Assembly: GCA_035549315.1 (NCBI GenBank)
Contig: DASZRC010000027.1
Location: forward strand, 4,514 to 68,513
DNA: 64,000 nucleotides
Direction of reading: 5' to 3'
From: Patescibacteria group bacterium
GTDB taxonomy: Bacteria > Patescibacteriota > Microgenomatia > Levybacterales > GWA1-39-11
A model generated the notes under the pieces. That model made no database searches. It was not told the DNA's origin and was given only the letters and a program-made list of their open reading frames with translations. The translations under genes were made by a program, and so were the position numbers. Positions 9,086-61,219 of this stretch are shown in pieces; within the stretch, counting starts at the first letter, position 1, and each line of letters begins with the position of its first letter.

Positions 9086-9208
9086 AATCTGATAAAATTA
9101 CTCTTATTCACCCCATTAAATATTTTTGGTATTATTTATGGAATTAAAAATTGAGACTATGACTAATTTGTATTTATTGATCAGAACGAAAGGAGAAGTT
9201 TTTAGGGG

Positions 9209-13821: not shown

Positions 13822-13866
13822 AAAAGCTGTTGTAAGCTCACTACCTTTGCTGTAGAATTTAAGCTT

Positions 13867-15461: not shown

Positions 15462-15462
15462 C

Positions 15463-17574
15463 ATGCCCGACCTATTGGTAGTTCTTCAATGGTGGATACC
15501 CATATTTATTGTAGGAATAGTTTTTCTTCCCACAACCGACTTCTTTTTCTCTGGTTTTTTGGATAGGGGGTATCTGTTTTCCAAAGTACTTGGTCTTGGA
15601 ATTACCACATATATCATATTTGTCTTAAGCTTTATTAGAATCCTTCCCTTTAACATCCTGTCTATAATATTGGTTTTGTGGGTTTGTCTAATGGGCAACT
15701 TTTATTTTTTTAAAAAAACCAAATATAAAATAAAATCTCTTCCAATTAAAGCATTTATCTTGGAGGAAATACTTTTTCTTATCTGCATAATATTTTGGTC
15801 ATATATTAGAGCGCATGAACCAAGTATAAACGGTCTTGAAAAATTTATGGATTTTGGTTTCCTAAATTCAATCCTAAGATCTACCTACATGCCCCCAAAT
15901 GACATGTGGTTTACCCCATTCTCAATTAATTATTATTATTTTGGACATCTAACAACTGCCGTCTTAACTAAGATATCTTTCTTGCCGTCTCTATTAACTT
16001 TCAACCTTATGATTGCAACACTCTTTGCCTTTACTTTCTCTTTATCTTTTTCACTAGTCATGAATTTGGTAAATGGTTTTGCAAAAAAAGGCAAAGCATT
16101 AATAGGTGGACTACTTGCTGCTTTTTTTGTTTCTTTTGGAGGAAACCTGCATACTATTTATTCATTATTTAAACCCTATGACGTAGATAATCCAGTACCA
16201 TTTTGGAAACTTGCTTTCTTGCCCCAAACATTCCCAAATAGTTATTGGTATCCCAACGCAACAAGATTTATCCCTTTTACAATTCATGAATTCCCTATCT
16301 ATTCTTTTGTTGTCTCTGATCTTCATGGACATGTATTGGATTTGATGTATGTGCTTTTATTAATTGCCCTGTCTTATGTGCTTTTTGTAAAAGGGGTAAA
16401 TAAGATAATACTTGGAACAATCGCTCTCTTTTTGGCAATTATGTATATGACAAATGCCTGGGATGGTGCAATCTACATGCTACTTGTTGGTTTTGCCATT
16501 CTTGCAAGAAACTATATTGATATTAAATCACACATAAAAAAAAACAAAACATTTTTCAGTTGTTTAATTCCGGCAATTAAAAAAACTATTGTTCCCTTTT
16601 TATCTACGGCAATTCTTTTTGTGATATTTACCCTTCCTTTTAGTTTAACTTTTAAACCTTTTGCCAGCGGCATTGGAGTATTATGCGCACCCTCCTTTTT
16701 AACAAAGATGGAACACTTGGGACCATTCCTTTTTGAAGCAAACCATTGCCAAAAATCTTCATGGTGGGAATTATTAACTCTCTATGGAGCGTTTTATTTC
16801 TTTGCTCTTTCACTGGTATTTTTTGTCTTTAGAACAAAAAAGAAAATATTAGATACCGACTACTTTGCCTTAATCTTAATAGGACTTTCAACAATTTTAA
16901 TAATAATTCCAGAGTTTATTTACTTAAAAGATATTTATCCGGCCCACTACAGAGCCAACACTATGTTTAAGTTAGTTTATCAATCGTTCATAATGTTATC
17001 TCTTGTTTCCTCCTACGCCATTGTTAGGATAATCACTTCAACCAAAAATATATTGTTTTATCTTGCAAGCGTTTTAATACTTATAGGAATATTTATTTAT
17101 CCATATTTTGCAATTAAGGGCTACTACGGAGATTTAACAAATTACAAAGGTCTAGATGGAACTTCTTATCTAAAAGAGAGATACCCACATGACTATGCTG
17201 CAATAAATTGGATCAATAAAAATATAAAGGGAACTCCTGTTATTGCAGAGGCACAGGGCGATTCATATACAGATTATGGAAGAATATCGTCTAATACCGG
17301 CCTTCCAACAATACTTGGATGGACAGTACACGAATGGCTGTGGCGTGGAACCTATGATGTCCCGGCTCCAAGAATTGAGGAAGTAAGAAGGATTTATGAA
17401 TCAAATAGTCTATCTGAAACAAAACAATTATTGAATAAATATAAAACTCAGTACGTATATATTGGAGATTTGGAAAGAGAAAAATACCCAAGCATTAATG
17501 AAACAAAGTTTAATAATTTAGGCAAAGTTGTTTTCCAAGACGGAAATAGCAGGTTGTACAAACTCAACAACTGA
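15463..17574 (+). CDS. DUF2298 / YYY-domain membrane protein (chlor_Arch_YYY family, predicted membrane glycosyltransferase)
   Basis: Contains the hallmark motif INYYYFGH. The 703-aa polytopic membrane protein has a C-terminal soluble domain. Confidence 0.65.
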   Translation: MPDLLVVLQWWIPIFIVGIVFLPTTDFFFSGFLDRGYLFSKVLGLGITTYIIFVLSFIRILPFNILSIILVLWVCLMGNFYFFKKTKYKIKSLPIKAFILEEILFLICIIFWSYIRAHEPSINGLEKFMDFGFLNSILRSTYMPPNDMWFTPFSINYYYFGHLTTAVLTKISFLPSLLTFNLMIATLFAFTFSLSFSLVMNLVNGFAKKGKALIGGLLAAFFVSFGGNLHTIYSLFKPYDVDNPVPFWKLAFLPQTFPNSYWYPNATRFIPFTIHEFPIYSFVVSDLHGHVLDLMYVLLLIALSYVLFVKGVNKIILGTIALFLAIMYMTNAWDGAIYMLLVGFAILARNYIDIKSHIKKNKTFFSCLIPAIKKTIVPFLSTAILFVIFTLPFSLTFKPFASGIGVLCAPSFLTKMEHLGPFLFEANHCQKSSWWELLTLYGAFYFFALSLVFFVFRTKKKILDTDYFALILIGLSTILIIIPEFIYLKDIYPAHYRANTMFKLVYQSFIMLSLVSSYAIVRIITSTKNILFYLASVLILIGIFIYPYFAIKGYYGDLTNYKGLDGTSYLKERYPHDYAAINWINKNIKGTPVIAEAQGDSYTDYGRISSNTGLPTILGWTVHEWLWRGTYDVPAPRIEEVRRIYESNSLSETKQLLNKYKTQYVYIGDLEREKYPSINETKFNNLGKVVFQDGNSRLYKLNN

Positions 17575-17596
17575 CCTGTCTGCCGACAGGCAACTA
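17575..17596. repeat. Palindromic element GACCTGTCTGCCGACAGGCAAC, copy 3 of the GACCTGYCTGCCGRCAGGCA family. It sits immediately after the stop codon of the YYY protein.
   Basis: Seen in the sequence. The two substitutions relative to the other copies are mirror-symmetric (C>T and G>A), which preserves the hairpin. Confidence 0.8.
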
Positions 17597-17606
17597 GCTT
17601 CTTTAT

Positions 17607-17634
17607 TTGACTTTGAAAATTCTATTTATATAAT
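17607..17634 (+). promoter_or_regulatory. Promoter candidate: TTGACT, 16-bp spacer, TATAAT. The ATG at 17641 is 7 nt downstream, so the transcript would be near-leaderless.
   Basis: Seen in the sequence. Confidence 0.4.
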
Positions 17635-17640
17635 TGCAGG

Positions 17641-18117
17641 ATGCCTAGAGAGATAAAAATTAGCGACCCATATCTTGCTGGTGAGTACTTGAAAACCGGA
17701 ACAAAATTAAATATTAGAGATAAACGTGGTTATCCCTTAATGAAAGTAGAACTTGGACCAGCTCTGGATGCGGAACATTATTGCCATACTTGTGGAGAAA
17801 CAGGCGAAAAGATAATTGCAGATTCGGAAACAAGTAATTCCCTTGCTCGTTCTAAGCTGGAAGTTGCCAATCTAGAGTTCACATCAGTTCCTACCTGTCC
17901 ACTCGCGCGATATAAAGATCTAGATAAAGAATCTGTTCAATCCATACAGTCAGACTGTATAAATAGAAGACCAGCAAGCAAAAAACAGGTAGAGCTAATT
18001 GAGGAAACTCAAATATATATAAATCATGCCCTATTAGCTACAGATCTGGGATATGCGGAGATTATTAGCTTAGACACAGAACGAACAATCGAGGCTTTAG
18101 AAAAAATAACTATTTAG
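17641..18117 (+). CDS. Hypothetical protein (158 aa) with Cys/His residues, possibly metal-binding
   Basis: ORF with a good promoter upstream. No recognizable family. Confidence 0.45.
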   Translation: MPREIKISDPYLAGEYLKTGTKLNIRDKRGYPLMKVELGPALDAEHYCHTCGETGEKIIADSETSNSLARSKLEVANLEFTSVPTCPLARYKDLDKESVQSIQSDCINRRPASKKQVELIEETQIYINHALLATDLGYAEIISLDTERTIEALEKITI

Positions 18118-19255
18118 ACTTTTGTTTTGTGGTAATTGAGGGAGTGGGCGTTGGATCAATGCCCAAACCTTTGGCCATGATCTCACATACATGTCCGCCG
18201 GCAACACAATTTACGTAAGACTGAATTTCAGAAAAGTCACCGTCTCCAACTCTAGGAATTAAATTGTATTGAAAACCTTTTGTCTCAGTTGGAATATCTT
18301 CTTTTAAAAGACCAAACCTACCCTCACTTTGATCGCCAAAATCTATAACAAAACTATCTATCTTTGCCTTCTGCATTTTCTGGGCCAAATTTATAAAGTC
18401 GTCATATTCATTTGGGGTCACATCTGTATCAATATTATCTTTTAAAATATTGAATATCCCAATAACCTTAACCGGATTAAGAATTATTCCAAGAGATAAT
18501 ACTTTTGATTTTATTGCAGATATTACTTCCTGCTGACGCCTTGATCTTGCAAAATCACTTCCCTCACCATTTATTCCATGCCTTGACCTTGAGAATTGAA
18601 GCGCAGTCTCCCCATCCATATGTTGAACTCCCTGATCCACATGAAGGTGCTTATAGCGACATTCAAAATATTTCCATTGATCAAGTTCGGCAGGCCCCGT
18701 AGCAATAAAGTCTTTTACCTCATCTTCCGGATGACCACAAAGGTCTGTTTCTTTTCCTTCTATTGGATAGTTGTAGTCATCCAAAGTATGGGCAACATTA
18801 ACATCTATACCACCAAGATAATCAACCAACTTTACAAAACCGGAGAAATCTATAACAACTACATAATCAATTTGTTTACCTGTAATTTTTTTTACTACGC
18901 TTTTAACCAAAAGCTTATTTTTATCATTTTTATCCAAACCTAATTGATAGGTTTTGTTTATCTTCCCATTAACATCCGACACCCATAAATCGCGGGGAAT
19001 AGAAACCAAATTTACAGTATTTTTTGTAGGGTTAATCATTGCAACAATGATTGTATCTGTAAGGTTTGGCCCATCATGGTTACCTCCGCCAATTCCCAAT
19101 ATTAAAATATTTATGTTTCCGGTTTTCTGTTCTTTTTTAAGAACTATTTCTTTTTTAATGTGGAATTTGTATATAAAGAATCCCCCAAAGATCAATGCTA
19201 TTAAACCAATAGCAAGTACCACCAATTTCCAATTTTGGGAACTTTTTTTTAGCAT
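18110..19255 (-). CDS. LytR-CpsA-Psr (LCP) family cell-envelope polymer transferase
   Basis: An N-terminal TM is followed by an LCP domain with conserved motifs (…IPRDLWV…, …GGIDV…, …FSRSRH…). Confidence 0.8.
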   Translation of the reverse strand: MLKKSSQNWKLVVLAIGLIALIFGGFFIYKFHIKKEIVLKKEQKTGNINILILGIGGGNHDGPNLTDTIIVAMINPTKNTVNLVSIPRDLWVSDVNGKINKTYQLGLDKNDKNKLLVKSVVKKITGKQIDYVVVIDFSGFVKLVDYLGGIDVNVAHTLDDYNYPIEGKETDLCGHPEDEVKDFIATGPAELDQWKYFECRYKHLHVDQGVQHMDGETALQFSRSRHGINGEGSDFARSRRQQEVISAIKSKVLSLGIILNPVKVIGIFNILKDNIDTDVTPNEYDDFINLAQKMQKAKIDSFVIDFGDQSEGRFGLLKEDIPTETKGFQYNLIPRVGDGDFSEIQSYVNCVAGGHVCEIMAKGLGIDPTPTPSITTKQKSK

Positions 19256-36284: not shown

Positions 36285-36962
36285 TTATTTGTTTACTACC
36301 GCATACAAATACTTATATGCATCAACTGCTAATTGAGCTCCTGCGAGCGTAAACTCCGGAACCCACAGCCCTCTATATCCCGCAACTGAAAATCCCTTTC
36401 TCAAACTTTTTAATTTATCCTCTACCGTCTTCGCTCCAGAATTATCCTTAATTAAGGCGGAACTACCTAGCTTTGCCTCCTCCATCATCTTTATATATAT
36501 CCCTGCACCACGTACTGCATCTATGCTTGGGTCAAAAGATTCTGCTACATATCCAATAGTTTCGCTCACTTTGTTTTCCGCAATTCCTGCGATATATTCT
36601 TCCCCTTCTGTTACTGAATGCAAGACTAAGGTGGAACCCATGGATGCATCAGCTAAAACTAAAAAATTGTTAACTTTATTCGCCGCCATTTGATTGAGCG
36701 CGTCATGGTCTATTACCCGAGGAATCTCCATCACTAAACGATTGGCTATTAGGCTAGGGACCGAGAGCCTAGTCCTATCTGCTGTAGCAGTCTTTATATC
36801 AGCCACAAGCTCATCCCTCTTATTTTTTAGATCTCTTAATAACGACTGCCTGTATCCGGAGAAGTAGAACATAGCAGCTTTTTTATCTGCTTCCGAAAGA
36901 TTTCTACTTCTATCTCCCCACGCTTCTCTCATTCTAAATACTAATCCAGCTTCATGATTCAT
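36285..36962 (-). CDS. Hypothetical protein, 225-aa family paralog P2
   Basis: Paralogous to 35300..35980. The last ~45 nt of the two genes are nearly identical, and a promoter cassette copy lies upstream. Confidence 0.55.
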   Translation of the reverse strand: MNHEAGLVFRMREAWGDRSRNLSEADKKAAMFYFSGYRQSLLRDLKNKRDELVADIKTATADRTRLSVPSLIANRLVMEIPRVIDHDALNQMAANKVNNFLVLADASMGSTLVLHSVTEGEEYIAGIAENKVSETIGYVAESFDPSIDAVRGAGIYIKMMEEAKLGSSALIKDNSGAKTVEDKLKSLRKGFSVAGYRGLWVPEFTLAGAQLAVDAYKYLYAVVNK

Positions 36963-36970
36963 AATGGTTG

Positions 36971-37024
36971 CATTTTATCAAAAAATGAGGCTAAATGCTC
37001 AAGGTTAATTAGGAGAGGTTAGTG
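36971..37024 (-). promoter_or_regulatory. Conserved promoter cassette, copy 2. It is upstream of paralog P2 and overlaps the last codons and stop of 37009..37353.
   Basis: Near-identical to 35155..35210. Confidence 0.55.
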
Positions 37025-37353
37025 AGCCTTTTTTCCATTGATAGACTTACTTCTATTGCCCTTCTTTTTCTTACTAAGAAATCTACAAAATTCCATTCTA
37101 TTTCCTTTATCTCTCCACCTTTACTTAGAACCTTTTTAATCCTTTCATCTTGTGCATATGTTGGCCCCAAACCAATAACAACTACAGCCTGCATATATTT
37201 ATTACCTTCTATGTATACTGTTGCTCCGGGATTTTGCTTCACAATTCTATCAACTACAAAATACGCCCCGAGCGATTGACGCAGAGATTTAAAAATCGCT
37301 GCCCTAACATATACGCCTTCTTCTTTAAAAATTGGTCCGAGTTTTTCCGCCAT
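37009..37353 (-). CDS. Small hypothetical protein (114 aa), small-paralog family member C
   Basis: Shares the pattern …EEGxYxRxA…NPGAxV…VVVIG… with 37769..38131 and, more loosely, with 37356..37706. Confidence 0.5.
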   Translation of the reverse strand: MAEKLGPIFKEEGVYVRAAIFKSLRQSLGAYFVVDRIVKQNPGATVYIEGNKYMQAVVVIGLGPTYAQDERIKKVLSKGGEIKEIEWNFVDFLVRKRRAIEVSLSMEKRLTNLS

Positions 37354-37355
37354 GA

Positions 37356-37706
37356 TTAGTTACGTCTTATTGGATCCATTTGTCCATTAGAATATTTTTT
37401 GAGTGCTTGATCACTATAAATTCCTTCAACCCTAGAAATAAGATCATCGTCAAATTGCATTATTCGTCCTGATATTGCAAGTGCATTAGTTATCGCCTTA
37501 TCAACTGTTTCCCTGGGTTTTTGCCTTGCACTTACAATAAGGAGAAACTTTTCTCCATAAGGAAGACCTGCGACATTAACGCTTGCACCATTAATAGCTG
37601 CCAATATTCCATCTCCCGCCCAGGAAACTTCATCCTGTGAATCCACTTCTGCAACTCTTAGGTATATTCCTTCCTCTTCCTCAATATTTCCAAATCTTTC
37701 TTTCAT
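37356..37706 (-). CDS. Small hypothetical protein (116 aa), small-paralog family member B. It has weak roadblock/LC7-like character (GDGILAAINGASVNVAGLP).
   Basis: ORF with a 2-bp gap to the downstream gene. Its N-terminus is duplicated twice downstream as decayed fragments. Confidence 0.5.
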   Translation of the reverse strand: MKERFGNIEEEEGIYLRVAEVDSQDEVSWAGDGILAAINGASVNVAGLPYGEKFLLIVSARQKPRETVDKAITNALAISGRIMQFDDDLISRVEGIYSDQALKKYSNGQMDPIRRN

Positions 37707-37768
37707 AGAAAGGAATTATATGATTAAAGTGGGGAAAAGTAAATTTAAGTCACCTCTAAGTTAAGAGG

Positions 37769-38131
37769 TTAGTTGTTTGAGGCAAGCTTTTGCTTTAAGG
37801 ATTCTTCTATTTCTTCTCCTATTCTTTTTCTAAGTAAACCATCAACTACCAACTCATGTACGTTAATTTCTCTTCCATTCTTATCTTTCAAAGCACTCAT
37901 AATATCATTATCAAAACGCCAATAAGATTCATCATCTCCAATAACAATAACCGTACTCATATTCTTATTTCCCGGGGGAACCAAATGCACTTGTGCACCA
38001 GGATTTCTATCTACTATTCCGGAGACGGAATTAAATGCTTTATCCGCTTGTATTGGATCATAGAATATTGCACCCCTTACATACCTTCCTTCGTCCTTCT
38101 CAATAGCGCTTCTTTGTCTTTCATTTTTCAT
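37769..38131 (-). CDS. Small hypothetical protein (120 aa), small-paralog family member A
   Basis: Paralogous to 37009..37353. Confidence 0.5.
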   Translation of the reverse strand: MKNERQRSAIEKDEGRYVRGAIFYDPIQADKAFNSVSGIVDRNPGAQVHLVPPGNKNMSTVIVIGDDESYWRFDNDIMSALKDKNGREINVHELVVDGLLRKRIGEEIEESLKQKLASNN

Positions 38132-38218
38132 AAGTTTTTAATAATTATTATTCTGTGATTTCTTATGCCACAAGTTAAGTATTATAAGATTGATAAGTTA
38201 AAAAGTAAAATTAAGTAG

Positions 38219-38695
38219 CTATTCCTCAAACGGATTAGGGAGAGGATCGCGGGGCGGAAGATATTTAGCATAATAAGCCATAATATGGAGATTCATATCT
38301 ACCCCTAATTCTTGGTATGCTGCCAAATATTTCATTTTTGCTTCCTGAATTCTTAATGCTGCAAGCTCAGGATCAAGGCCACCCAAGACATCATCTACAA
38401 TTCTTTTTCCTATGGGAGGTAGATACAATGTCTGCTCTTTTCTATCCTTATTATAGGAATCTTCCATTAAGCCCCTATTATGGATTCTCCCTCCTAGTAT
38501 ATTTAAGGAATATAAAGTTCTTTGCGCAACATTAGCCTCGGATAAATCAAGAGATGAGTACAAGCCTTTAACTCTGTCTAACTCTTGCCTAGCTGTTTCT
38601 AGTGTAATTTCAGGATAGGGCTCGGGCTCAGGCGCCACATTTTCCGGCTTTCTCCAGAAAGCGAATCTACCAAATTTACCGCGTCTTGATTCCAT
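38219..38695 (-). CDS. Hypothetical protein (158 aa)
   Basis: ORF only. Confidence 0.45.
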   Translation of the reverse strand: MESRRGKFGRFAFWRKPENVAPEPEPYPEITLETARQELDRVKGLYSSLDLSEANVAQRTLYSLNILGGRIHNRGLMEDSYNKDRKEQTLYLPPIGKRIVDDVLGGLDPELAALRIQEAKMKYLAAYQELGVDMNLHIMAYYAKYLPPRDPLPNPFEE

Positions 38696-38731
38696 AATCT
38701 ATATTATAGGTCTAATTGTTTAAAAGTCAAA

Positions 38732-39202
38732 CTAAGATTTTTTACGGGGAAATTGCGGAATTTGATCCGGAGTTACGATACCTCTTTTAACAAGCTCAAA
38801 TAATCTACTGCCATCTGTTATTTGTGCCTTCAATCTATCTATCTCAGCCAAGGCAGCTCTATTCACCCCAGCATCATTTCTTCCTGGATCAACCATTTGT
38901 TCCCGAAAAAACTGGGCTGCTTTCCTAACCCTTACCGATGGCTTATCATAATCCCAACTTTCTCTTGCAGCTTGAACATCGCGAATATTTTCAAAAGATC
39001 TACCATCAAAAAATCCAAAATCCAAATCTGGAATTCTATTATTAATAGCAACTTCATCTGCTATGGCAATTACTTGCGCAGCATTAACAATCCCTTCTCT
39101 TGTTAAAATTTTTCGTGTTCTGGGATCTAAACGTAAAAGCTCAAGTCCCATCTGAGAGAATCGATTTGGCTGATACCTATCTTCTTTTTGATCTGCACTC
39201 AT
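38732..39202 (-). CDS. Hypothetical protein (156 aa)
   Basis: ORF only. Confidence 0.45.
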   Translation of the reverse strand: MSADQKEDRYQPNRFSQMGLELLRLDPRTRKILTREGIVNAAQVIAIADEVAINNRIPDLDFGFFDGRSFENIRDVQAARESWDYDKPSVRVRKAAQFFREQMVDPGRNDAGVNRAALAEIDRLKAQITDGSRLFELVKRGIVTPDQIPQFPRKKS

Positions 39203-39240
39203 AAAACGGATTATAAGATTTTAGATGTGAAGTTGCAAAC

Positions 39241-39921
39241 CTATCCTACAGCAACCGGCTCTTGGGGATGATGCTTGTCATATACTCCCATTATTTCTTC
39301 TAATTTTTCTTTTGCCTCTGTCATTAGCTGGTCATCCGGATTAGCCAATAAAGTTTTGTAATTTTTCCTCATATCAGAAAGCATTTCATCAAGTTCTTCA
39401 ACCCTTGTTGAGTGATTTTCTACAACATAGTAAACAAAGTTGCTATGATATGGGTCATTCTGTGCCGTTAACTCTTCTCCTGGTTTTAAAGGCGTGCGTG
39501 GCCTTCCGCCTTTTTCAACAAGAAAATAATGGTCCCGTCTTATAAAATCTGCAATAAGATCTCTAACCAAAAGCTTTTTATCTATGGGACTATTTGTAAC
39601 TTCTTGATAAAAAGTAGCTACCGCTCCGCTGAAATCTTCCCCAACGCTACCCTGAGTTAAAATCATTCCGGCTTTGTTTTCTCTAGGATGATTACCGGAC
39701 AAAACTACATTTGCCATCTTTCCCTCAAGGGCAGAATCCAACCCGACGTCTTCCACTAGTTCGTCTGTCATAACCCAATCAGGCCTAATACTTTTTGCAT
39801 ATGAAAACATTTTTCTTTGAGCAAGCTTATCTCCTTGAGAAAGCGGGAATGTTGCAAAAACAATTGCTTTTGCTTTATCTGCTGTGAGTGGGGGATATTG
39901 CCCTGGCTTCTCTTCTTCCAT
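39241..39921 (-). CDS. Hypothetical protein (226 aa), the first gene of the minus-strand cluster
   Basis: ORF only. It has weak, unconvincing similarity to the P1/P2 family in its central region. Confidence 0.45.
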   Translation of the reverse strand: MEEEKPGQYPPLTADKAKAIVFATFPLSQGDKLAQRKMFSYAKSIRPDWVMTDELVEDVGLDSALEGKMANVVLSGNHPRENKAGMILTQGSVGEDFSGAVATFYQEVTNSPIDKKLLVRDLIADFIRRDHYFLVEKGGRPRTPLKPGEELTAQNDPYHSNFVYYVVENHSTRVEELDEMLSDMRKNYKTLLANPDDQLMTEAKEKLEEIMGVYDKHHPQEPVAVG

Positions 39922-40216: not shown

Positions 40217-43200
40217 ATGCAGAAGAAAAAGAAAACATTAAACAGAAAAAACTTACAAAACCCTGAGTTTTATGGACTCCCAAAGTACACACAATTTTTC
40301 TACACTCTCCTGTCTCTAATTTTTGTTTTCGGCTTTGCTCTCTGGTGGTTTCAACCAAACCATATACCTTTTAACTTTGCCGGAGAACTCCGTTTTATAG
40401 ATATTCTCTTATTTCTAACCGTAAGCTACATTATCTGGCAACCAATAACAATGGATATTTTGACATGGGCAATTTCATCCAACATAAAAGATATTCGTCA
40501 CCAAAAACCGACCGCCGGATCAAAAGTAGCTTTTATAACAACCATAGTTCCTGCTAGTGAATCACTAGATTTACTACATAAATGTTTACCTGCTATGGTA
40601 GATGCGTCATACCCGCATGACACTTGGCTTTTAGATGAAGGGGATAGCGCTGAAGTAAAAGAAATTTGTAGAAAATATGGTGTCCACTATTTTACAAGAC
40701 ATGGCAGGGAAGAATTTAACACCCCAAATGGAAAGTTCACCAAAACAAAAGGCGGAAACCACAATTCTTGGTATGAAGTCTATGGAGATAATTATGATTT
40801 TGTTGCCCAGATTGATACAGACTTTGTCCCCAAAAAAACTTTTCTCACAAAAACATTAGGATACTTTAGGGATCCAAAAGTTGCTTTTGTTGGTACTCCA
40901 CAAATATATGGAAATACAGATGAGTCAATAATTGCAAGAGGAGCAGCGGAACAACTTTATACATTCTACGGATCTGTTTTAAAAGGATTAAGTAGTATGA
41001 AGATGACTCTACTTATTGGGGCAAACCATATTATTAGAGTTGCAGCCTTACGTAATGTTAATCACTATAGTGCACATATAACTGAAGATTTAATAACGGG
41101 AATGAAACTCCATGCCAACGGTTGGGAGAGCGTTTACATTTCAGAACCTCTTGCAGTTGGGGAGGGCCCATCAACCTGGGAGGCATATTTTAGTCAACAA
41201 ATGCGTTGGGCGTATGGATGTATGGATATATTTTTCCACCACAGCCCAAAACTATTTAAAAGAATGGGGCTAAGAAGAACAGTATATTATTTCTTTCTCC
41301 AACAACATTATTTTACAGGACTTGCCATGGCGCTAAGTATAATTTTGATAAGTCTTTATTTTTTCCTAGGACTTAGGGCAGCAAATGTAGACCTCTACAA
41401 ATTTTTTGGGCTCTACTCCGTAACCCTCATAATTTGTTGGCTAATGTCTGTTTTCCTACAAAGGTTCAACGTATATAGAAAAAGTGAAGGGGAAATGCTA
41501 GTTGCCGGAAAACTTATTAGTATTGCGGCATGGCCCGTTTGGTTCTTGGCATTTATAAGTTTGGTTACCGGTAAAAAATTATCATACAAAGTTACTCCAA
41601 AAGGGGAAAATGACGCAAAACCAAAAAGGTCCTTTAAAATTTTTATTCCCCATATAACACTGGGGTTAATAACATTGGCAGGACTTCTTTATTCTATTTT
41701 CATAGGAAGACAAAACATTGGAATGGTTTTCTGGGCAAGTGTTTCTATTATTCTTATGTTTAGTGTTCCATTTACCCAAGAAATAGATGATTTTACAAAG
41801 AAAGCGCAGAAAATTATGGTAAGGGTAGGTTTTAAACTTTATAAAATAATAAGAAAAATTGATAGCAAACTTACACCGGAATTATTTAAATCAAGCGAGG
41901 AAAATGATGTCAAAAGGGTTAAAAAAATTGCCCCAAGAAAAAGATATCTTAATGATTATGTTTTTCTAACTCTTGTAGTAATTATTTCATCTGTTCTCTA
42001 TATAAATAAGATTTCATTTTATAGTGATGACTGGTCATTCTTGGGAAACTTTAGTTTGTCACAAAACCATTCACTACTTGGATTATTCCAAACAGCAACA
42101 ACACCAAATACATTAATGCGCCCCGTCCAAAATTTTTATGAAGCGCTTCTATATTGGTCTTTTGGAACATCACCTCTTGGCTACCAACTGGTAAATTTGG
42201 GAATATTTATTGGAATAGTTGTATTTTTCTATACCGTTCTAAGGCAGCTCAAAGTACCAAGACTTTTATCCGTTGCGATTCCCCTTGTCTATGTACTGCT
42301 CCCCAATTATTCAACAGACAGATTTTGGTTTGCGGTACATCAAGCAAACCTTAGCGTACTATTTTATTTTATAAGCCTTTTTGCTGCTTTAAAATCCGTA
42401 TCACGTTTTACACTTAGAAAAAGTCTATGGAAAGTAATTAGTATAGTGGCCCTTTTATTAAGCGTATTAAGTTATGAAGTTGTTATTCCATTATTTGTAA
42501 TAAACTTATTTATTTTGTGGAACCCATACAATCTTTTCTTAAGAATTGTTTATGGGAAAAGACGGTCAAATATGGTTTTTATAAGCGTAATCTCCATATT
42601 TCTTCTTTATACCTTGGTCTTCAAAGCACTTACAACAAGGCGCCTTACCGGAGGCATTGACATAAACTACATCCTACATGTTTTGGGATCTGCGATACAT
42701 GTAAATTACGGTTCTTGGTTTATTAACCTACCATACATATGGGGAGAAATAATTTCTGCCCATACCGATCCAATTCTTCTTGCACTAACCGGAATAATGT
42801 ATGTTTTTATTTTCTATCATTTATATTCCCTTGCATCAGACCCCGATTTTAAATTCCCTACAATTTCTGCAATGAAAACTCTAACACTTTCTAGTTTTGT
42901 TATTTTCTTTTTGGGATATGCAATTTTTTTCACAAACAACCAAGTTGGATTTTCTCCAACGGGGGTTGAGAATAGAGTTGCTATTGCAGCAGCCATTGGA
43001 GTGGCTATGACTTTTGTTGGGCTATCCGGATGGTTAAGTAAAATATTTTTGCCGGAAAAAGCAGCAAAGGTAATGTTTTGCATTATTCTATCTTTGATAT
43101 GCGCCGGAAGTTTTTTGACCGTTAATACAATTGCATCTTTTTGGGCCGATGCAGGATCCAAGAGCACCAAAGTTCTTGCCGACATACATAAAGAATTTCC

Positions 43201-43570
43201 TACTGTGAACAATAAAAGTACAATACTTCTTGATGGAGTGTGTCCATATGTTGGACCGGCACCGGTTTTTGAAGCAGATTGGGATCTTAAAGGAGCACTG
43301 GAAACATATTACCTCAAACCATTGAATGCAGATATTGTGACGCCTCGCCTAAAGGTAAAAGACAATAGCATAACAACTACTATTTATACATTCACCACAA
43401 GCTATCCTTATAAAAACATGTACATCTACAATTACAAAACCAAACAAATTTTCAAAATTAATGATGCTGACGATGCGCATGCATACTTTAATACGTACAA
43501 CAATGACCTAAATAATGGCTGTCCCAATGCAGAGGCCGGAAAGGGTGTGGCTATCTTTAAATTTATATGA
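40217..43570 (+). CDS. Family-2 glycosyltransferase (processive cellulose/beta-glucan-synthase-like, BcsA-type) fused to a ~600-aa C-terminal polytopic membrane domain
   Basis: Carries the D, DxD, TED and QxxRW motifs (…DEGDSAEV…, …QIDTDFVPK…, …ITEDLITG…, …QQMRWAYG…). A GGAGGAGG SD lies upstream. Confidence 0.75.
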   Translation: MQKKKKTLNRKNLQNPEFYGLPKYTQFFYTLLSLIFVFGFALWWFQPNHIPFNFAGELRFIDILLFLTVSYIIWQPITMDILTWAISSNIKDIRHQKPTAGSKVAFITTIVPASESLDLLHKCLPAMVDASYPHDTWLLDEGDSAEVKEICRKYGVHYFTRHGREEFNTPNGKFTKTKGGNHNSWYEVYGDNYDFVAQIDTDFVPKKTFLTKTLGYFRDPKVAFVGTPQIYGNTDESIIARGAAEQLYTFYGSVLKGLSSMKMTLLIGANHIIRVAALRNVNHYSAHITEDLITGMKLHANGWESVYISEPLAVGEGPSTWEAYFSQQMRWAYGCMDIFFHHSPKLFKRMGLRRTVYYFFLQQHYFTGLAMALSIILISLYFFLGLRAANVDLYKFFGLYSVTLIICWLMSVFLQRFNVYRKSEGEMLVAGKLISIAAWPVWFLAFISLVTGKKLSYKVTPKGENDAKPKRSFKIFIPHITLGLITLAGLLYSIFIGRQNIGMVFWASVSIILMFSVPFTQEIDDFTKKAQKIMVRVGFKLYKIIRKIDSKLTPELFKSSEENDVKRVKKIAPRKRYLNDYVFLTLVVIISSVLYINKISFYSDDWSFLGNFSLSQNHSLLGLFQTATTPNTLMRPVQNFYEALLYWSFGTSPLGYQLVNLGIFIGIVVFFYTVLRQLKVPRLLSVAIPLVYVLLPNYSTDRFWFAVHQANLSVLFYFISLFAALKSVSRFTLRKSLWKVISIVALLLSVLSYEVVIPLFVINLFILWNPYNLFLRIVYGKRRSNMVFISVISIFLLYTLVFKALTTRRLTGGIDINYILHVLGSAIHVNYGSWFINLPYIWGEIISAHTDPILLALTGIMYVFIFYHLYSLASDPDFKFPTISAMKTLTLSSFVIFFLGYAIFFTNNQVGFSPTGVENRVAIAAAIGVAMTFVGLSGWLSKIFLPEKAAKVMFCIILSLICAGSFLTVNTIASFWADAGSKSTKVLADIHKEFPTVNNKSTILLDGVCPYVGPAPVFEADWDLKGALETYYLKPLNADIVTPRLKVKDNSITTTIYTFTTSYPYKNMYIYNYKTKQIFKINDADDAHAYFNTYNNDLNNGCPNAEAGKGVAIFKFI

Positions 43571-44550
43571 TACCTAAAGTTATTTTTATTTTTATCACTA
43601 TTGTTTTGATATTAGGTGGCAGTTATACACTGCTTAATAACCACCCGCATCAAGAAATTTTACTTGGTGCTTGGACACAAGGATTTTATGATGCAAACCA
43701 GAAAAAGTTAAACCCTCAAAAACTTTTAGACTTTGAGTCTTTAACAAAGAAAAAATATTCTATAGCCCATTATTACAGAGGATGGGAATCTTTTATTGAT
43801 CCCACTCTTGTTAAAGAATTTAGTTTACTAAGAAAAAACGGATGGACCCCAATGCTTAGCTCTAACCCATATTATTTTTCTGATTGTCCCGTGCAAACTG
43901 AATCAATATACAAAAGCATTGCAGAAGGTAAGTGTGACGAGTTTTTAAATAAAGCCGGGGAAAATTTAAAGAAAATTAACAAACCGTTTTATTTGGCTTT
44001 TGCTTGGGAAATGAATAACAAAGATCTTGAATGGAGTGTTCCTTATACAGGGAGCTCTCCACAAGATTTTGTAGATGCATGGCGCCACATTCATGATATG
44101 TTTGAAAAACACGGAGCAAAAAATATACTCTGGGTATTTTGTCCAAATATTCCGGATGTTCCCCACCCGTCCTATAAAGACCTTTATCCCGGCGACAAAT
44201 ACGTAGACTGGACTTGTTTAGATGGATACAACTGGGGGACAACTCAAAGTTGGAGCAAATGGACAAGCTTTACAGACATTTTTGGTTCCTCCTATCAAAC
44301 CATTTCAGACATAGCTCCGGGCAAACCATTAATGATTGGGGAAGTAAACACAACAGATGTTGGCGGAAACAAAGCGGGTTGGTACGGGGATGCATTTAGG
44401 GATATTCCCTACAATTTTCCAAACATAAAAGCTGTTGTTATTTTTAATGAAGATAAAAGCAAACAGGAAAATGTTAATTGGAGAGTTGATGTCTCAAAAG
44501 ATTCTTTGAATTCTTATATATCTGCAATTAAACCTGCGATTTATAAATAG
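43567..44550 (+). CDS. Clan GH-A glycoside hydrolase (GH26/GH113-like endo-beta-1,4-glycanase) with an N-terminal TM
   Basis: …LAFAWEMNN… supplies the acid/base Glu and …MIGEVN… the nucleophile Glu. The gene overlaps the upstream GT2 by 4 bp. Confidence 0.55.
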   Translation: MIPKVIFIFITIVLILGGSYTLLNNHPHQEILLGAWTQGFYDANQKKLNPQKLLDFESLTKKKYSIAHYYRGWESFIDPTLVKEFSLLRKNGWTPMLSSNPYYFSDCPVQTESIYKSIAEGKCDEFLNKAGENLKKINKPFYLAFAWEMNNKDLEWSVPYTGSSPQDFVDAWRHIHDMFEKHGAKNILWVFCPNIPDVPHPSYKDLYPGDKYVDWTCLDGYNWGTTQSWSKWTSFTDIFGSSYQTISDIAPGKPLMIGEVNTTDVGGNKAGWYGDAFRDIPYNFPNIKAVVIFNEDKSKQENVNWRVDVSKDSLNSYISAIKPAIYK

Positions 44551-44561
44551 GTTTTTTAAAT

Positions 44562-47420
44562 ATGAATATTCTGTCCTATTACAAAATTATGGAATTTGAT
44601 ACGGCAAGAACGCCTCCGTTACCGTCTGCTCCCACAGATCAAGAAAAATATATGTACCTTAAAAGGGGTAATAGATCTCTTATCTTTTTTTCAATAATAA
44701 GCTTTATTGGAATTTATATTAGTCTGTTTGATTTTCTTGGTAATCACACAGCACTTTGGCCACTGTATGTGTACCTTGTTCTTACCGGAATTTATTTTGT
44801 AGATTCTATTATTGTTAATTTCTTCTCAAAAGATTTTGACATTAAAAAACATAAATATCTGGTTAATAAATGGTCCAAGGGTCTTGATAGAAGGGTTGAT
44901 GTTTTTCTGCCAACAGCCGGAGAAGATATATCCATATTACAAAACACGTGGAATGGAATATTAGACATGACCAAAAACTTTGGCGGGAAAATCCAAGTCT
45001 ATTGTCTTGATGACTCAGCAAGAACGGAAGTCAAAACTCTGGCAGAAATATATGGATTCAATTACATAGTCAGACCAAAAAGAGGATGGTTTAAAAAATC
45101 CGGAAACCTGCGATATGGGTACAAAGTTTCTAATGGAGAATTTATTGCAATTTTTGATGCAGACTTTAAACCAAGGGCAGACTTTTTGAATGAACTTTTA
45201 CCTTACTTACTTGAATATAAAGATGTAGGACTAGTCCAATCCCCGCAATATTTTGATGTAAACAAAAATCAGAATTGGCTGCAAAGGGGCGCAGGAGAAG
45301 TACAAGAATTATTTTATAGAATGTGCCAAGTTTCTCGCCAAAGCCACAACGCCTCAATTTGCGTTGGCTCAAATGCATTGTATAGAAGAGACGCACTTGC
45401 AGAATCCGGAGGGACAGCGCTTATTCAACACTCAGAAGATGTACATACCGGTTTCAACATGAGAATGAAGGGATGGACGATACAATATATCCCAATAGTT
45501 CTTGCCAAAGGCCTTTGTCCTGACGACATGGTCTCTTTCTTCAAACAACAATACAGGTGGTGCATGGGGTCAATGACACTTTTGTCCTCTCATAAATTTT
45601 GGCATACCAAAATTTCATTAAAGGCTCGCCTCTCATATTTCTCCGGATTTTTATATTATATTCATACTGCAATTAGTTCTTTTATAGCGCCAATTATTCC
45701 GCTAACCGTCCTAATCTTTTTCCCGGAAAAAGTTTATTGGGGAACATATCTCTATATTCTTCCTTCAATAATATTTATACAAATCATTTATCCTCTTTGG
45801 CACAGAGCCGTTTATGGCATTGAAGCTTGGTCAACCAGAATTGTTTATGGATGGGCTCATCTATATGCAATTTTTGACGGAATAACAAAGGACGCAATGT
45901 CATGGCAGCCAACCGGAACAAAAAGTAAAGCAGACCCCAAGTATTTTAGATTTAGACTGTTACAAATAATTTTTAATTTATTACCCTCTATTGTTTGGGT
46001 TTATCTTGCAGCCCGCCAGGTAATTGTCTACAACAACTTTGTTTTTATTCCAATATTATTAAGCGGAATTTATTACTACCTAATATGTGCAAAGATTAGT
46101 TTCTTTGTTTCCAACAGCAGACTAAATTTTGGTGATTTATTTTCTGCAAATATCAAAAGCGTGTCAAAACAAATTGTAATTGCTATGCCGTTATTAATAT
46201 TAGTTTCTCTGGGGGTATTACTTTTTAATGCCAACTCTTTGAATATTAAATTTAATTTCTACCAGAGCAAACCAATAGTAAGCGGGGTTAGCCAAAAGAA
46301 GACTTCTATTAAAAATGCTTATGCAAATAACACATTGATTCAGAGTGTTAATAATGATGAGATATTATTAAAGACGTGGACATATTACAAAGATAATTTT
46401 GTTACAGAAAATGGCCAAAGCATTGACCCTGATAGACAATACAAAACAACTTCTGAAGGACAATCATACATACTGCTAAGAAGTGTGATAATAAATGATA
46501 AAGATACGTTTGAAAAATCCTGGAGCTGGACAAAAGAAAATCTTCAGCACAAACAAAATGATAAACTTTTTTCTTGGTTATGGGGAGGAGCAACTCCTGC
46601 AAAAGAAAAAGTTATCTATAAAGAAAACGCAACAGACGCAGATGAAGATATTGCATTGGCTTTAATACTTGCATCATACAAATGGAACAATAAGGAATAT
46701 TTAGCGGAAGCAAAGGCAATAATTTCTGACATATGGAAATTTAATGTTGTTAAACAAAACACCAGATATTATTTATTGGGAGGATCACAATTTAATAAAC
46801 CCCAAGGATTTGTTATAAACCCATCCTACATCTCTCCTGCCTCGTACAAAATATTCTCCGCTGTTGATAAAGATCATCCTTGGAAAAATCTGGCAAAAGA
46901 TTCATATTACTTACTCCAAAAAATTAATCTAGATACCCCCAATACGGTTGGTCTTCCTCCAAATTGGATATTGTTAAGTAGGTCCGGAAAAATTACCAAA
47001 GCAACAATTTTTGTTACCGGCAACTCTGACATGTACGGCTATGATGCATTTAGGACTTTTTGGAGAGTAGCGCTTGACGCAAATTGGTTTGACAACAAAG
47101 AAGCAAAAGATTATCTAAGTATTGCAGAAATATTTTTTGGAGAAAAATGGAATAAGGATAAAAAGATAAATGCAGTATATACTACAGATGGAAAAGTAAT
47201 AGATAGTAAACAAAGTGTTAGCACCTATACCGGCCCACTTTCTGTATTTAGCATAAGGGACAAAAAGATAGCGGATGAAATTTACAAAGACTACTATAAT
47301 AAGCAGCTAAACCATGATGGATACTGGGGAAACGGAAAAAATTATTATGACCAAAACTGGGCTTGGTTTGCAACTGCTTTGTATTCCGGCAATATAAAAC
47401 TTCCAAAAAACTTACCCTAA
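44562..47420 (+). CDS. Fusion protein: an N-terminal GT2 cellulose-synthase-like domain (BcsA-type) and a C-terminal GH8 endoglucanase domain (BcsZ-type)
   Basis: The GT2 motifs are …CLDDSARTE…, …FDADFKP…, …SEDVHTG… and QQYRW. The GH8 signature motifs are …TTSEGQSYILL… and …ATDADEDIALALILASYKW…. Confidence 0.75.
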   Translation: MNILSYYKIMEFDTARTPPLPSAPTDQEKYMYLKRGNRSLIFFSIISFIGIYISLFDFLGNHTALWPLYVYLVLTGIYFVDSIIVNFFSKDFDIKKHKYLVNKWSKGLDRRVDVFLPTAGEDISILQNTWNGILDMTKNFGGKIQVYCLDDSARTEVKTLAEIYGFNYIVRPKRGWFKKSGNLRYGYKVSNGEFIAIFDADFKPRADFLNELLPYLLEYKDVGLVQSPQYFDVNKNQNWLQRGAGEVQELFYRMCQVSRQSHNASICVGSNALYRRDALAESGGTALIQHSEDVHTGFNMRMKGWTIQYIPIVLAKGLCPDDMVSFFKQQYRWCMGSMTLLSSHKFWHTKISLKARLSYFSGFLYYIHTAISSFIAPIIPLTVLIFFPEKVYWGTYLYILPSIIFIQIIYPLWHRAVYGIEAWSTRIVYGWAHLYAIFDGITKDAMSWQPTGTKSKADPKYFRFRLLQIIFNLLPSIVWVYLAARQVIVYNNFVFIPILLSGIYYYLICAKISFFVSNSRLNFGDLFSANIKSVSKQIVIAMPLLILVSLGVLLFNANSLNIKFNFYQSKPIVSGVSQKKTSIKNAYANNTLIQSVNNDEILLKTWTYYKDNFVTENGQSIDPDRQYKTTSEGQSYILLRSVIINDKDTFEKSWSWTKENLQHKQNDKLFSWLWGGATPAKEKVIYKENATDADEDIALALILASYKWNNKEYLAEAKAIISDIWKFNVVKQNTRYYLLGGSQFNKPQGFVINPSYISPASYKIFSAVDKDHPWKNLAKDSYYLLQKINLDTPNTVGLPPNWILLSRSGKITKATIFVTGNSDMYGYDAFRTFWRVALDANWFDNKEAKDYLSIAEIFFGEKWNKDKKINAVYTTDGKVIDSKQSVSTYTGPLSVFSIRDKKIADEIYKDYYNKQLNHDGYWGNGKNYYDQNWAWFATALYSGNIKLPKNLP

Positions 47421-52184: not shown

Positions 52185-52270
52185 CGAGCAAAGGCGGAGG
52201 AGACAGGATTCGAACCTGCGAGAGTCTTACGACTCAGGGATTTAGCAAACCCCCTCAGTGGGCCACTGTG
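52185..52270 (-). tRNA. tRNA-Ser (anticodon GCU)
   Basis: Manual fold: acceptor GGAGGAG/CTCCTCC, anticodon loop TTGCTAA, long variable arm and T-loop GGTTCGAATCC. Two GC hairpins follow its 3' end. Confidence 0.8.
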
Positions 52271-52386
52271 ACACTCCTCCAGAGGCTATATTATACCAAA
52301 GCTAAACTTGTTTTTGTTAAATTCTGTTAGGATTTTGTGAGGCTAATTAGGTTGCTCACAAACCCTCCCTGTGCTATGATTTAGAC

Positions 52387-55231: not shown

Positions 55232-55255
55232 GTTATAGGCAATAGGTATTAGGGG

Positions 55256-55328
55256 TGGGCGCGATAGGACTCGAACCTATGACCAGGTGTGTATAAGACA
55301 CCCGCTCTACCAACTGAGCTACACGCCC
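55256..55328 (-). tRNA. tRNA-Ile with a genomically encoded UAU anticodon
   Basis: A canonical 73-nt cloverleaf: acceptor GGGCGTG/CGCGCCC, D-arm TAGCTCAGTTGGTAGAGC, anticodon stem GGTGT/ACACC, loop CTTATAC and T-loop GGTTCGAGTCC. Confidence 0.8.
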
Positions 55329-60781: not shown

Positions 60782-61193
60782 GGGGATGCATTGCATCGAC
60801 AAGGTTGCTCATTAAAAACTGCAAGCCGATAATGATACTAATCGCAAAATTGTATCAAAAATAAATGCTGACGGAGTTATATCCAAAGGCCGTGGGTTAA
60901 TGCCAAAATTGGCAGATGCCTTCTCACCAAAAGCTTATGCTTTTAGTGGGTTAGCTGCTTAAAAAACAGCCACTATTTACACCGTTTCTTTTCTCAAGCG
61001 GATAGGTGTAGGTAAAAACAAAGTTTGAGATAGGATAAGGAAGTTGATTTGGTCCTTACTCCAAAACTAAGAATCTTGGAATTGTTTTCCCCGCCAATTG
61101 GGTCAGAACAAGACGACAATTAAGATTTGGCTAAGCTTGTAGATGTTTTTAGAGAGTCAATTTTGGACGAGGGTTCATTACCCTCCATCTCCA
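60782..61193 (+). ncRNA. ssrA: tmRNA (SsrA), ~412 nt
   Basis: The 5' end GGGGATGCATTGCATCGACAAGG pairs with the 3' end CATCTCC-A to form an acceptor stem carrying the G3·U70 alanine identity pair. T-arm GAGGG-TTCATTA-CCCTC. An internal tag ORF ends …AYAFSGLAA-TAA. The gene lies immediately downstream of smpB. Confidence 0.7.
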
Positions 61194-61219
61194 CAAAAGT
61201 TAGTAGTAGAGCATACCCA

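Follow-up and report, generated by a model that had tools for sequence, protein, structure and literature searches.

A three-gene operon of a Patescibacteria group bacterium encodes two cellulose-synthase-like glycosyltransferases, one of them fused to a GH8 domain

INTRODUCTION

The reason for which cellulose-type synthases require a cognate hydrolase (BcsZ, CcsZ, CslZ, and plant KORRIGAN) is still debated, and the envelopes of bacteria of the Candidate Phyla Radiation (CPR), as well as their attachment to hosts, are poorly understood. Both subjects are touched by a locus in a stretch of 64,000 nucleotides (nt) from a Patescibacteria group bacterium (contig DASZRC010000027.1, positions 4,514 to 68,513; here called the window), in which a processive glycosyltransferase family 2 (GT2) domain and a glycoside hydrolase family 8 (GH8) domain lie in a single predicted polypeptide. 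A preliminary description of the window had read this protein as a BcsA-BcsZ-type fusion, taken it and a second GT2 nearby for duplicates, and named these genes together with an upstream cluster as making the window unusually rich in envelope-glycan machinery. The locus thus raises the questions of whether the fusion is genuine, on which side of the membrane the hydrolase would act, how the two GT2s are related, and what the genes might produce together. We found that the fusion of this GT2 to GH8 is real but rare.

RESULTS

A self-contained operon of three genes

The locus comprises three open reading frames (ORFs); the coordinates given for the two GT2 genes in the preliminary description proved exact.

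40217-43570, + strand: ORF1, 1117 amino acids (aa), first GT2 (GT2a) with a C-terminal extension
43567-44550, + strand: ORF2, 327 aa, putative membrane-anchored GH26 hydrolase
44562-47420, + strand: ORF3, 952 aa, second GT2 (GT2b) fused to GH8

Because the start codon of ORF2 overlaps the stop codon of ORF1 (ATGA), only 11 nt separate ORF2 from ORF3, and the flanking genes on both sides are on the opposite strand, ORF1, ORF2, and ORF3 form a self-contained, translationally coupled operon of 7.2 kb. A promoter and terminator scan found no more sites than in shuffled sequence, and its result was not used. Judged from their conserved motifs, both GT2s and both hydrolases are catalytically complete.

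ORF3 joins a processive synthase core to a GH8 domain

44562..46100, + strand: aa 1-513, GT2b processive synthase core (Pfam, NCBIfam, AlphaFold2 [AF2], Foldseek)
45003-45017: motif CLDDS
45156-45167: motif DADF
45429-45443: motif HSEDV (aa 290-294)
45546-45560: motif QQYRW, on the helix IF2
46128..46352, + strand: aa 523-597, extra helix (hydrophobic core 537-555) and disordered tether of ~40 residues rich in Asn, Ser, and Lys
46353..47417, + strand: aa 598-952, GH8 catalytic domain (Pfam, CelA alignment)
46449-46463: TSEGQ (aa 630-634), with the putative catalytic acid Glu632
46629-46655: ATDADEDIA segment (aa 690-698)
47034-47054: YGYDAFR, with the putative catalytic base Asp828

The motif set D, DxD, TED, and QxxRW, previously ascribed to both GT2s, was complete in ORF1; in ORF3 (GT2 Pfam match, aa 113-386) the D, DxD, and QxxRW motifs were present but TED was replaced by SED, and the gating loop was the variant WQPTGTK. 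Hydropathy and the AF2 model placed the parts of ORF3 in the order of two transmembrane (TM) helices (37-60 and 63-87), the GT domain, IF2, two further TM helices (353-386 and 393-414), an amphipathic helix (420-442), the WQPTGTK loop, and a last pair of TM helices (459-489 and 493-513). The GT2b half was modeled with a predicted local distance difference test (pLDDT) score of ~90 and has the helix pattern of BcsA; its best Foldseek matches were the BcsA structures 9b8v (E value, 7e-19) and 4p00, followed by CesA and hyaluronan synthases. Past this core, an additional helix spans aa 523-555, and the tether (aa 557-597) was modeled with a pLDDT below 50. Among five full-length fusions, the linker region varied in sequence and kept the hydrophobic stretch.

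The second GT2 had been said to run without a break into the GH8 domain, and this was borne out by the domain annotation as well as by the reading frame. Pfam called GH8 (PF01270) in the C-terminal half, over aa 595-924, with a score of 151.8 bits (E value, 3e-44) against a cut-off of 24, and no stop or frameshift was present in ORF3 between the two domains. The TSEGQ, ATDADEDIA, and YGYDAFR segments align with SEG, DADED, and YDATR of CelA, and the roles of the CelA residues (Glu as acid, Asp as base) were used for the assignment. In sequence comparisons the GH8 domain matched CelA (1cem) at an E value of 1e-28 over the whole domain, BcsZ-type enzymes at ~1e-24 to 1e-20, xylanases at ~1e-9, and chitosanases at ~5e-6. 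In Foldseek comparisons, which addressed the (alpha/alpha)6 barrel fold of GH8, BcsZ gave a template modeling score (TM-score, normalized to the target) of 0.70 and CelA one of 0.55-0.59, figures obtained with a half-model of low pLDDT owing to a shallow alignment.

In solved BcsA, the four TM helices that follow the GT domain bring the chain back to the cytoplasm, where PilZ is situated. Hydropathy and the AF2 helix order agreed on the BcsA pattern plus one TM helix before the GH8 domain. Since ORF3 thus has one TM helix more than the post-GT set of BcsA, helix parity and homology to solved BcsA make it likely that GH8 lies on the outer face of the membrane.

The fusion and its cassette recur in few genomes

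In a search space of 5.8 billion clustered proteins, the GT2b-GH8 architecture was found in five full-length clusters (P0001-P0005), which are 53-63% identical and each a continuous ORF, and further in a sixth truncated by its contig (P0007) and in an 89% relative cut at residue 406 (L001). An exhaustive HMMER scan, for which GH8 was the sole query domain, yielded no additional GT2b-GH8 protein among its 150 best matches. The GH8 catalytic residues and the GT2b motifs were invariant in the five full-length fusions. The whole cassette (GT2a with its extension, GH26, and GT2b-GH8) was kept in L001 (89%) and in two more distant loci, L023 and L024 (53-55%), and the gene calls of the latter two agree with an unbroken fusion. 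In all, a minimum of four further assemblies (53-89% identity) share the fusion and cassette. We are nearly certain of the architecture and conservation of the cassette as described here. The flanks of the cassette in L001, L023, and L024 were unrelated. The cassette may reside on a mobile element, which would agree with the different surroundings that it has in the window, L023, and L024. In L023 (1-5149) the cassette stands directly 3' of genes for a phage-type integrase, a MerR regulator, and a serine recombinase.

GT2a and GT2b are an old pair

40217..41776, + strand: ORF1 aa 1-520, GT2a processive cellulose-synthase-like core (Pfam, NCBIfam, hydropathy)
40628-40642: motif LLDEG (aa 138-142)
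40814-40825: motif DTDF (aa 200-203)
41078-41092: motif ITEDL (aa 288-292)
41195-41209: motif QQMRW (aa 327-331)
41585-41602: gating-loop motif YKVTPK (canonical, FxVTxK type)

GT2a consists of two N-terminal TM helices, a GT-A domain, and a C-terminal TM bundle (GT2 Pfam match, aa 107-400, 70 bits); its best sequence match in the Protein Data Bank (PDB) was BcsA (E value, 6.5e-26), and it is 54-86% identical to the GT2a proteins of other CPR loci. The view that the two GT2s are duplicates of one another did not stand. In the window they are 29% identical (BLASTP), and a neighbor-joining tree of 33 domains divided GT2a from GT2b, reciprocally monophyletic, in 100/100 bootstraps, with identities of 40-80% within and 19-28% between the types. 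Moreover, 38 of the 120 best ORF3 matches were single GT2a-GT2b polypeptides of 1000-1200 aa in the gene order of the window, mostly from Saccharibacteria and Levyibacteria. The split holds across many genomes and the fusion of the two types recurs; GT2a and GT2b are ancient paralogs, co-inherited as a functional pair, and not a local duplication.

Top matches of ~1000-1200 aa were also considered as ORF1-like proteins of GT2 plus extension; this was rejected when BLASTP and domain mapping identified them as GT2a-GT2b tandems. The fused double synthase, two different and complete processive GT2s in tandem, is encoded in many CPR genomes, with examples from P0006 to P0057 and in L009/L026 (CP025011.1, Saccharibacteria YM_S32; 8001-11180). 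GT2b alone also occurs in Rhodobacteraceae, Actinomycetes (the Actinoplanes GT2b is on a 2.3-kb contig that gave no informative neighborhood), and Chloroflexi, and all named GT2a relatives are from CPR; the GT2a homolog list omitted the fused forms and ORF1 and cannot serve for frequencies of stand-alone versus fused proteins. Two loci labeled Gammaproteobacteria (L002) and Limnocylindria (L004) encode CPR-type GT2a-GT2b proteins, 57-62% identical to the window proteins, and binning errors or lateral transfer may account for these taxon labels.

ORF2 resembles the lichenase Lic26A

43567..44550, + strand: ORF2, putative GH26 hydrolase with a membrane anchor, Lic26A (lichenase) branch (Pfam, PDB comparison, hydropathy)
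43579-43635: N-terminal TM helix (aa 5-23; hydropathy)
44002-44016: AWEMN, with a predicted catalytic Glu
44335-44349: IGEVN, with a predicted catalytic Glu

The TM-anchored GH26-like hydrolase expected between the two GT2 genes was found, and its class could be narrowed. The Pfam GH26 score was 30.1 bits against a cut-off of 20.2, and the best solved relatives were PDB 2bv9 and its kin (E value, 3e-41 over aa 52-321), whereas mannanases gave E values of at least 6e-4. Entry 2bv9 is the GH26 module of Clostridium thermocellum endoglucanase H, i.e., Lic26A; AWEMN and IGEVN align with its EaN and aEf positions, and both catalytic Glu residues are kept. From these alignments ORF2 is placed in the Lic26A branch of GH26. 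Lic26A and its sole other characterized relative are lichenases, and that relative is inactive on mannan (PMC7157769); by extension from these relatives, ORF2 would cut beta-1,3-1,4-glucan and not mannan.

Hydrolases and synthases are shuffled among related loci

In related loci the same modules occurred in other combinations. L025 encodes a stand-alone homolog of the ORF1 extension, a GH26, and a GT2b without GH8; L002 has a GH26 followed by a fused GT2a-GT2b; and L008 has GT2a, GH16, a PMT_2-like GT-C protein, and GT2b. The complete Saccharibacteria genome CP025011 carries a TM-anchored GH16, a fused GT2a-GT2b, and a TM-anchored GH6 whose gene overlaps the 3' end of the synthase gene. The GH16, on the GT2a side, is closest to endo-beta-1,3-glucanases (4e-30), and the GH6, at the GT2b end, to beta-1,4-endoglucanases (3e-72); the counterparts in the window are the lichenase-type GH26 after GT2a and the cellulase-type GH8 fused to GT2b. 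All four hydrolases are membrane tethered. The comparison suggests non-orthologous replacement of the hydrolases between Saccharibacteria and the window with the class kept; such a change of hydrolase has precedent in bcs loci (PMC9693552).

About 44 of the 150 best GH8 relatives are proteins of 800-950 aa with a C-terminal GH8 domain (P0241-P0378). As further GT2-GH8 fusions they were rejected, since none matches GT2a or GT2b; nine were examined, and the N-terminal half was a PMT/PMT_2-type GT-C in seven and had no Pfam match in two. This GT-C-GH8 architecture appears to be uncharacterized. In one locus (L031), a 427-aa GT2 is followed 3 nt later by such a GT-C-GH8 protein (8001-10649). A separate protein of 1684 aa on a 44-kb Logan contig (P0337) has the order GH8-GT2-PilZ-TPR and unites domains resembling those of BcsZ, BcsA, and BcsC in an arrangement that differs from ORF3. 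The GT2, GT-C-like, and GH8, GH26, GH16, or GH6 modules thus recombine, and Rosetta-stone logic would tie them functionally.

A putatively GT-C-like extension on ORF1

41777..41959, + strand: ORF1 aa 521-581, Lys/Arg-rich linker (17 Lys and Arg) between GT2a and the polytopic module
41960..43567, + strand: ORF1 aa 582-1117, putative GT-C-like polytopic module and C-terminal beta-rich soluble domain
42020-42034: YSDDW, immediately C terminal to TM helix 1 of the extension
43232-43249: DGVCPY, containing C1009

The polytopic extension already noticed on the first GT2 was confirmed by hydropathy, with about 10 hydrophobic helices over aa 582-970 and then a 147-aa tail; the linker before it is predicted to be cytoplasmic by the positive-inside rule. 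Neither Pfam nor NCBIfam gave a match for ORF1 aa 560-1117 at an E value of ≤0.01, and thus none to a curated GT-C sequence family (PMT, PMT_2, ArnT, and similar), and the precomputed Pfam field was empty for 118 of 120 listed homologs, the two exceptions being the GT2 domains of P0123 and PF16760 in P0128; a GT-C family appeared in none. The homologs are mostly stand-alone proteins of ~560 aa from CPR, cyanobacteria, and Bacteroidota. The AF2 model of the extension had a pLDDT of 94 and a predicted TM-score (pTM) of 0.93, and its top 22 Foldseek matches in the PDB were all GT-C enzymes, among them PglB, ArnT, Pmt4, AglB, STT3, DPY19, and AftA, with TM-scores of only 0.29-0.41. Acidic residues at the first extracytoplasmic loop, a GT-C trait, are present in YSDDW; in an alignment of 71 family members D604 and W606 were invariant and D605 was conserved in at least 90%. 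Two cysteines of the C-terminal soluble domain, C1009 and C1102, were also invariant. Taken together, the model and the alignment are suggestive of a divergent GT-C-like module. No candidate lipid-sugar synthase was found within the three-gene operon. The gene neighborhoods of two free-standing homologs of the extension were compared: one gene belongs to a GT2/GT4 polysaccharide cluster, the other is solitary, and neither had a specific link to a cellulose synthase.

Genomic setting

The window has a GC content of ~35% and contains tRNAs and a tmRNA, as in a cellular genome. The sequence of ORF3 is identical to that of an NCBI protein from a metagenome-assembled genome labeled Patescibacteria group bacterium. 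The upstream GT-C/YYY cluster that had been named beside the operon as envelope-glycan machinery lies ~20 kb away, and no link between them was found. Other features of the window are as follows.

9209-19255: separate envelope-glycan cluster of amine oxidase, two PMT_2-type GT-C proteins, NAD-dependent epimerase, DUF2298 membrane protein, and LCP (LytR-CpsA-Psr) protein
36285-39921, - strand: five consecutive ORFs of 120-226 aa, close to the 5' end of the operon, no Pfam match
52193-52280, - strand: tRNA-Ser(GCT), an ARAGORN call with no Rfam report at the gathering threshold
55254-55328, - strand: tRNA-Ile with anticodon TAT (ARAGORN; Rfam tRNA, 72 bits)
60782-61196, + strand: tmRNA; the predicted tag is unusually long (ADGVISKGRGLMPKLADAFSPKAYAFSGLAA)

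A tRNA-Ile(TAT) is an uncommon bacterial means of AUA decoding, for which a lysidine-modified CAT tRNA is usual.

DISCUSSION

A proposed beta-glucan secretion machine

We consider it somewhat probable that the operon as a whole equips a CPR bacterium with a single membrane to secrete beta-glucan by a self-contained, synthase-dependent machine. With nucleotide-sugars of the cytoplasm as donors, GT2a and GT2b, two different processive synthases, would each build a chain and extrude it through its own TM channel. At the outer face, the GH26 would be held by its N-terminal anchor, and the GH8 by its covalent link to GT2b, made up of one extra TM helix and a flexible tether of ~40 residues; both hydrolases could then act in cis on the chains as they emerge, by trimming, release, or quality control, as BcsZ, CcsZ, and CslZ would do as separate proteins. 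Tethering to the membrane might stand in for the periplasmic confinement that a single-membrane cell does not have. The GT-C-like module, also outside, would probably transfer a lipid-linked sugar onto the glucan or couple the glucan to an envelope acceptor, which is a guess. That the hydrolases act on the cell's own product is fairly probable. Their classes hint that the product of GT2b has beta-1,4 linkages (GH8/GH6) and that of GT2a linkages that include beta-1,3 (GH26/GH16), which would imply either two polymers or one mixed-linkage product, and we put this assignment forward only tentatively. Still more speculative is an undescribed modular "twin-synthase" machine of CPR, in which two different GT2 synthases, in many cases one polypeptide, would extrude beta-1,3-containing and beta-1,4 chains side by side, served by linkage-matched tethered hydrolases (GH16 or GH26 for the former, GH6 or GH8 for the latter) and finished or anchored by the GT-C-like module.

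Several points weigh against this proposal. The GH8 half of the ORF3 model is of low confidence, and the GT-C assignment relies on modest TM-scores (0.29-0.41) with no Pfam match. Hydrolase partners are not universal: L003-L005 carry the fused synthase with no adjacent glycoside hydrolase (GH), and the GT2b of Paracoccaceae stands alone, with a kinase, an FHA protein, and a phosphatase for neighbors and no adjacent hydrolase. Lic26A-type enzymes require a mixed-linkage substrate and the GH16 is laminarinase-like, so the two versions of the GT2a side do not point to quite one and the same linkage. Some taxon labels of metagenome-assembled genomes (L002 and L004) may be binning errors, and all family members are known from sequence. 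Finally, the literature finds no reliable signature of linkage type in GT2 sequences (PMC6821405, PMC10374906), and for this reason no call between beta-1,4 and beta-1,3 was made from the GT2s themselves.

Of the other explanations, the one that fares best is that one (1,3;1,4)-beta-glucan is the joint product of GT2a and GT2b, working as a heterodimer or fused, and is processed by GH26, GH8, GH16, and GH6. The closest characterized relatives of ORF2 are lichenases, the GT2a-GT2b fusion imposes a 1:1 stoichiometry, and the GH16, GH8, and GH6 families all hold enzymes that cut mixed-linkage glucan. Each GT2, however, has its own full motif set and TM bundle, so that a single chain would have no obvious route to alternate between synthases, and the known mixed-linkage synthases BgsA, RiGT2, and CslF6 work as single GT2s (PMC10374906, PMC6821405). 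We regard joint synthesis of one chain as a minor possibility.

It is less likely that the hydrolases forage on, or attack, glucans of a host or the environment and that fusion to GT2b gives GH8 a mere membrane anchor. CPR bacteria are often episymbionts that rely on external substrates, GH8, GH26, GH16, and GH6 are classic degradative families, and some loci hold synthases without hydrolases. A foraging role sits poorly, though, with the translational coupling of the operon and with the repeated recruitment of class-matched hydrolases beside or into these synthases in varied combinations; moreover, an anchor like that at the N terminus of ORF2 would suffice, and a 7-TM synthase is a costly one.

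A non-glucan polymer, chitin- or chitosan-like or another beta-glycan, with GH8 as a chitosanase-type or other enzyme, seems improbable. Chitosanases and xylanases do belong to GH8, polysaccharide deacetylase genes lie a few kb away in L025 and L031, and the GT2 motifs are common to synthases of chitin, hyaluronan, and PNAG. Against this, the GH8 domain is nearer to cellulases (CelA, 1e-28) than to xylanases (~1e-9) or chitosanases (~5e-6), both GT2s match the CelA/BcsA models best and PgaC and NodC much more weakly, and the partner GH26, GH16, and GH6 enzymes are all nearest to glucanases. Last, an artificial joining of separate GT2 and GH8 genes by a frameshift or lost stop found no support, even though the window comes from a metagenome-assembled genome, and it is excluded for practical purposes because five independent assemblies (53-63% identity) keep one ORF with the hydrophobic linker helix and the L023 and L024 gene calls concur.

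No account of a CPR double synthase or of a GT2-GH8 fusion, and no paper joining Saccharibacteria or CPR with cellulose synthase in this sense, was found in the literature searched, which left subscription journals outside its coverage. If the reading with two parallel chains were true, GT2b-GH8 would be the first natural, catalytically intact hydrolase hard-wired at the exit of a bacterial cellulose-synthase-like channel. Covalent fusion through a short tether argues for a hydrolase that acts in cis at the channel exit, and GT2b-GH8 could serve structural and biochemical work as a minimal system of one protein. The conserved GT2a/GT2b pair suggests that CPR could need very few genes to make a surface layer of composite or mixed beta-glucan, and the shuffling of modules would tie a large unannotated membrane-protein family, that of the ORF1 extension, to glycan biosynthesis.

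Comparison with known systems

Both GT2s have the features of processive GT2s of the BcsA/CesA/CrdS kind, namely the motifs, a GT-A domain in a TM bundle with interface helices, and a gating loop, and both matched the Pfam families Glyco_trans_2_3, Glyco_tranf_2_3, and Cellulose_synt. Their scores were well below the cut-offs of the NCBIfam models TIGR03030 (CelA/BcsA; 136 bits for ORF1 and 158 for ORF3 against 699) and NF008558 (101 and 138 against 992), and the GH8 of ORF3 reached 130.3 bits against the 299 of the BcsZ equivalog NF008305 and is nearer in sequence to C. thermocellum CelA than to BcsZ. Pfam gave no PilZ match in ORF1 or ORF3, and Pfam and NCBIfam no BcsB-like gene among the three operon genes. 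Because PilZ is missing, the N-terminal TM helices number two, and the scores are below the equivalog cut-offs, GT2a and GT2b are, by sequence, not BcsA proper, nor is the operon a member of the BcsA/BcsZ systems.

The term BcsA-BcsZ-type fusion thus remains apt for a GT2 and an intact GH8 in a single polypeptide, as an analogy. The likeness to BcsA/BcsZ comprises a processive GT2 with D, DxD, (T/S)ED, and QxxRW and a TM channel, BcsA as the best match in sequence and fold, a GH8 with the same Glu/Asp set, and the encoding of synthase and hydrolase together. The window differs in joining both in one polypeptide by an extra TM helix and tether, in its second synthase and second hydrolase, in having two rather than four N-terminal TM helices, and in having no PilZ, BcsB, or BcsC. 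Of the preliminary description as a whole, the fusion, the intervening GH26, and the extension persist, the duplication does not, the BcsA-BcsZ type holds by analogy, and no link to the upstream cluster was found.

The clearest published fusion is tunicate CesA, in which a GT2 is joined to a C-terminal cellulase-family domain, GH6 (PMC7464555), and a GT2 with an adjacent GH6 also occurs in the Saccharibacteria relative. Tunicate CesA is eukaryotic, its hydrolase is GH6 and not GH8, and that domain, with a substituted active-site residue, is possibly inactive (PMC7464555), whereas the GH8 residues of ORF3 are intact. In cell-envelope logic, the nearest analogs of the operon would be Streptomyces CslA-GlxA-CslZ and Clostridioides CcsA-CcsB-CcsZ (PMC11022532), which combine a PilZ-less or divergent GT2, a single membrane, and a cognate non-GH8 glucanase, GH5 in the case of CcsZ (PMC11022532, PMC9693552). 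These systems consist of separate proteins with one synthase and a partner (GlxA or CcsB) that the window operon does not have, and they contain no GT-C module.

CrdS and BgsA are BcsA-like GT2s with two or three N-terminal TM helices and no PilZ (PMC6821405), traits that GT2a and GT2b share in a comparison made by description only. CrdS and BgsA/RiGT2 form beta-1,3 or mixed linkages, and the lichenase- and laminarinase-type partners of the window's family would point to beta-1,3-containing products as well; those systems are single-synthase and have no fused hydrolase. The GT-C-GH8 proteins of ~850-950 aa hold the GH8 domains nearest to that of ORF3 outside its own clade (45-52% identity), and in them, as in ORF3, GH8 is C terminal to a polytopic glycosyltransferase; their PMT/PMT_2-type GT-C partner has no detectable homology to the ORF1 extension. 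By analogy with these systems, the operon would work like a cellulose synthase with its cognate endoglucanase, as a rare architecture inside a broader and apparently undescribed two-synthase module of CPR.

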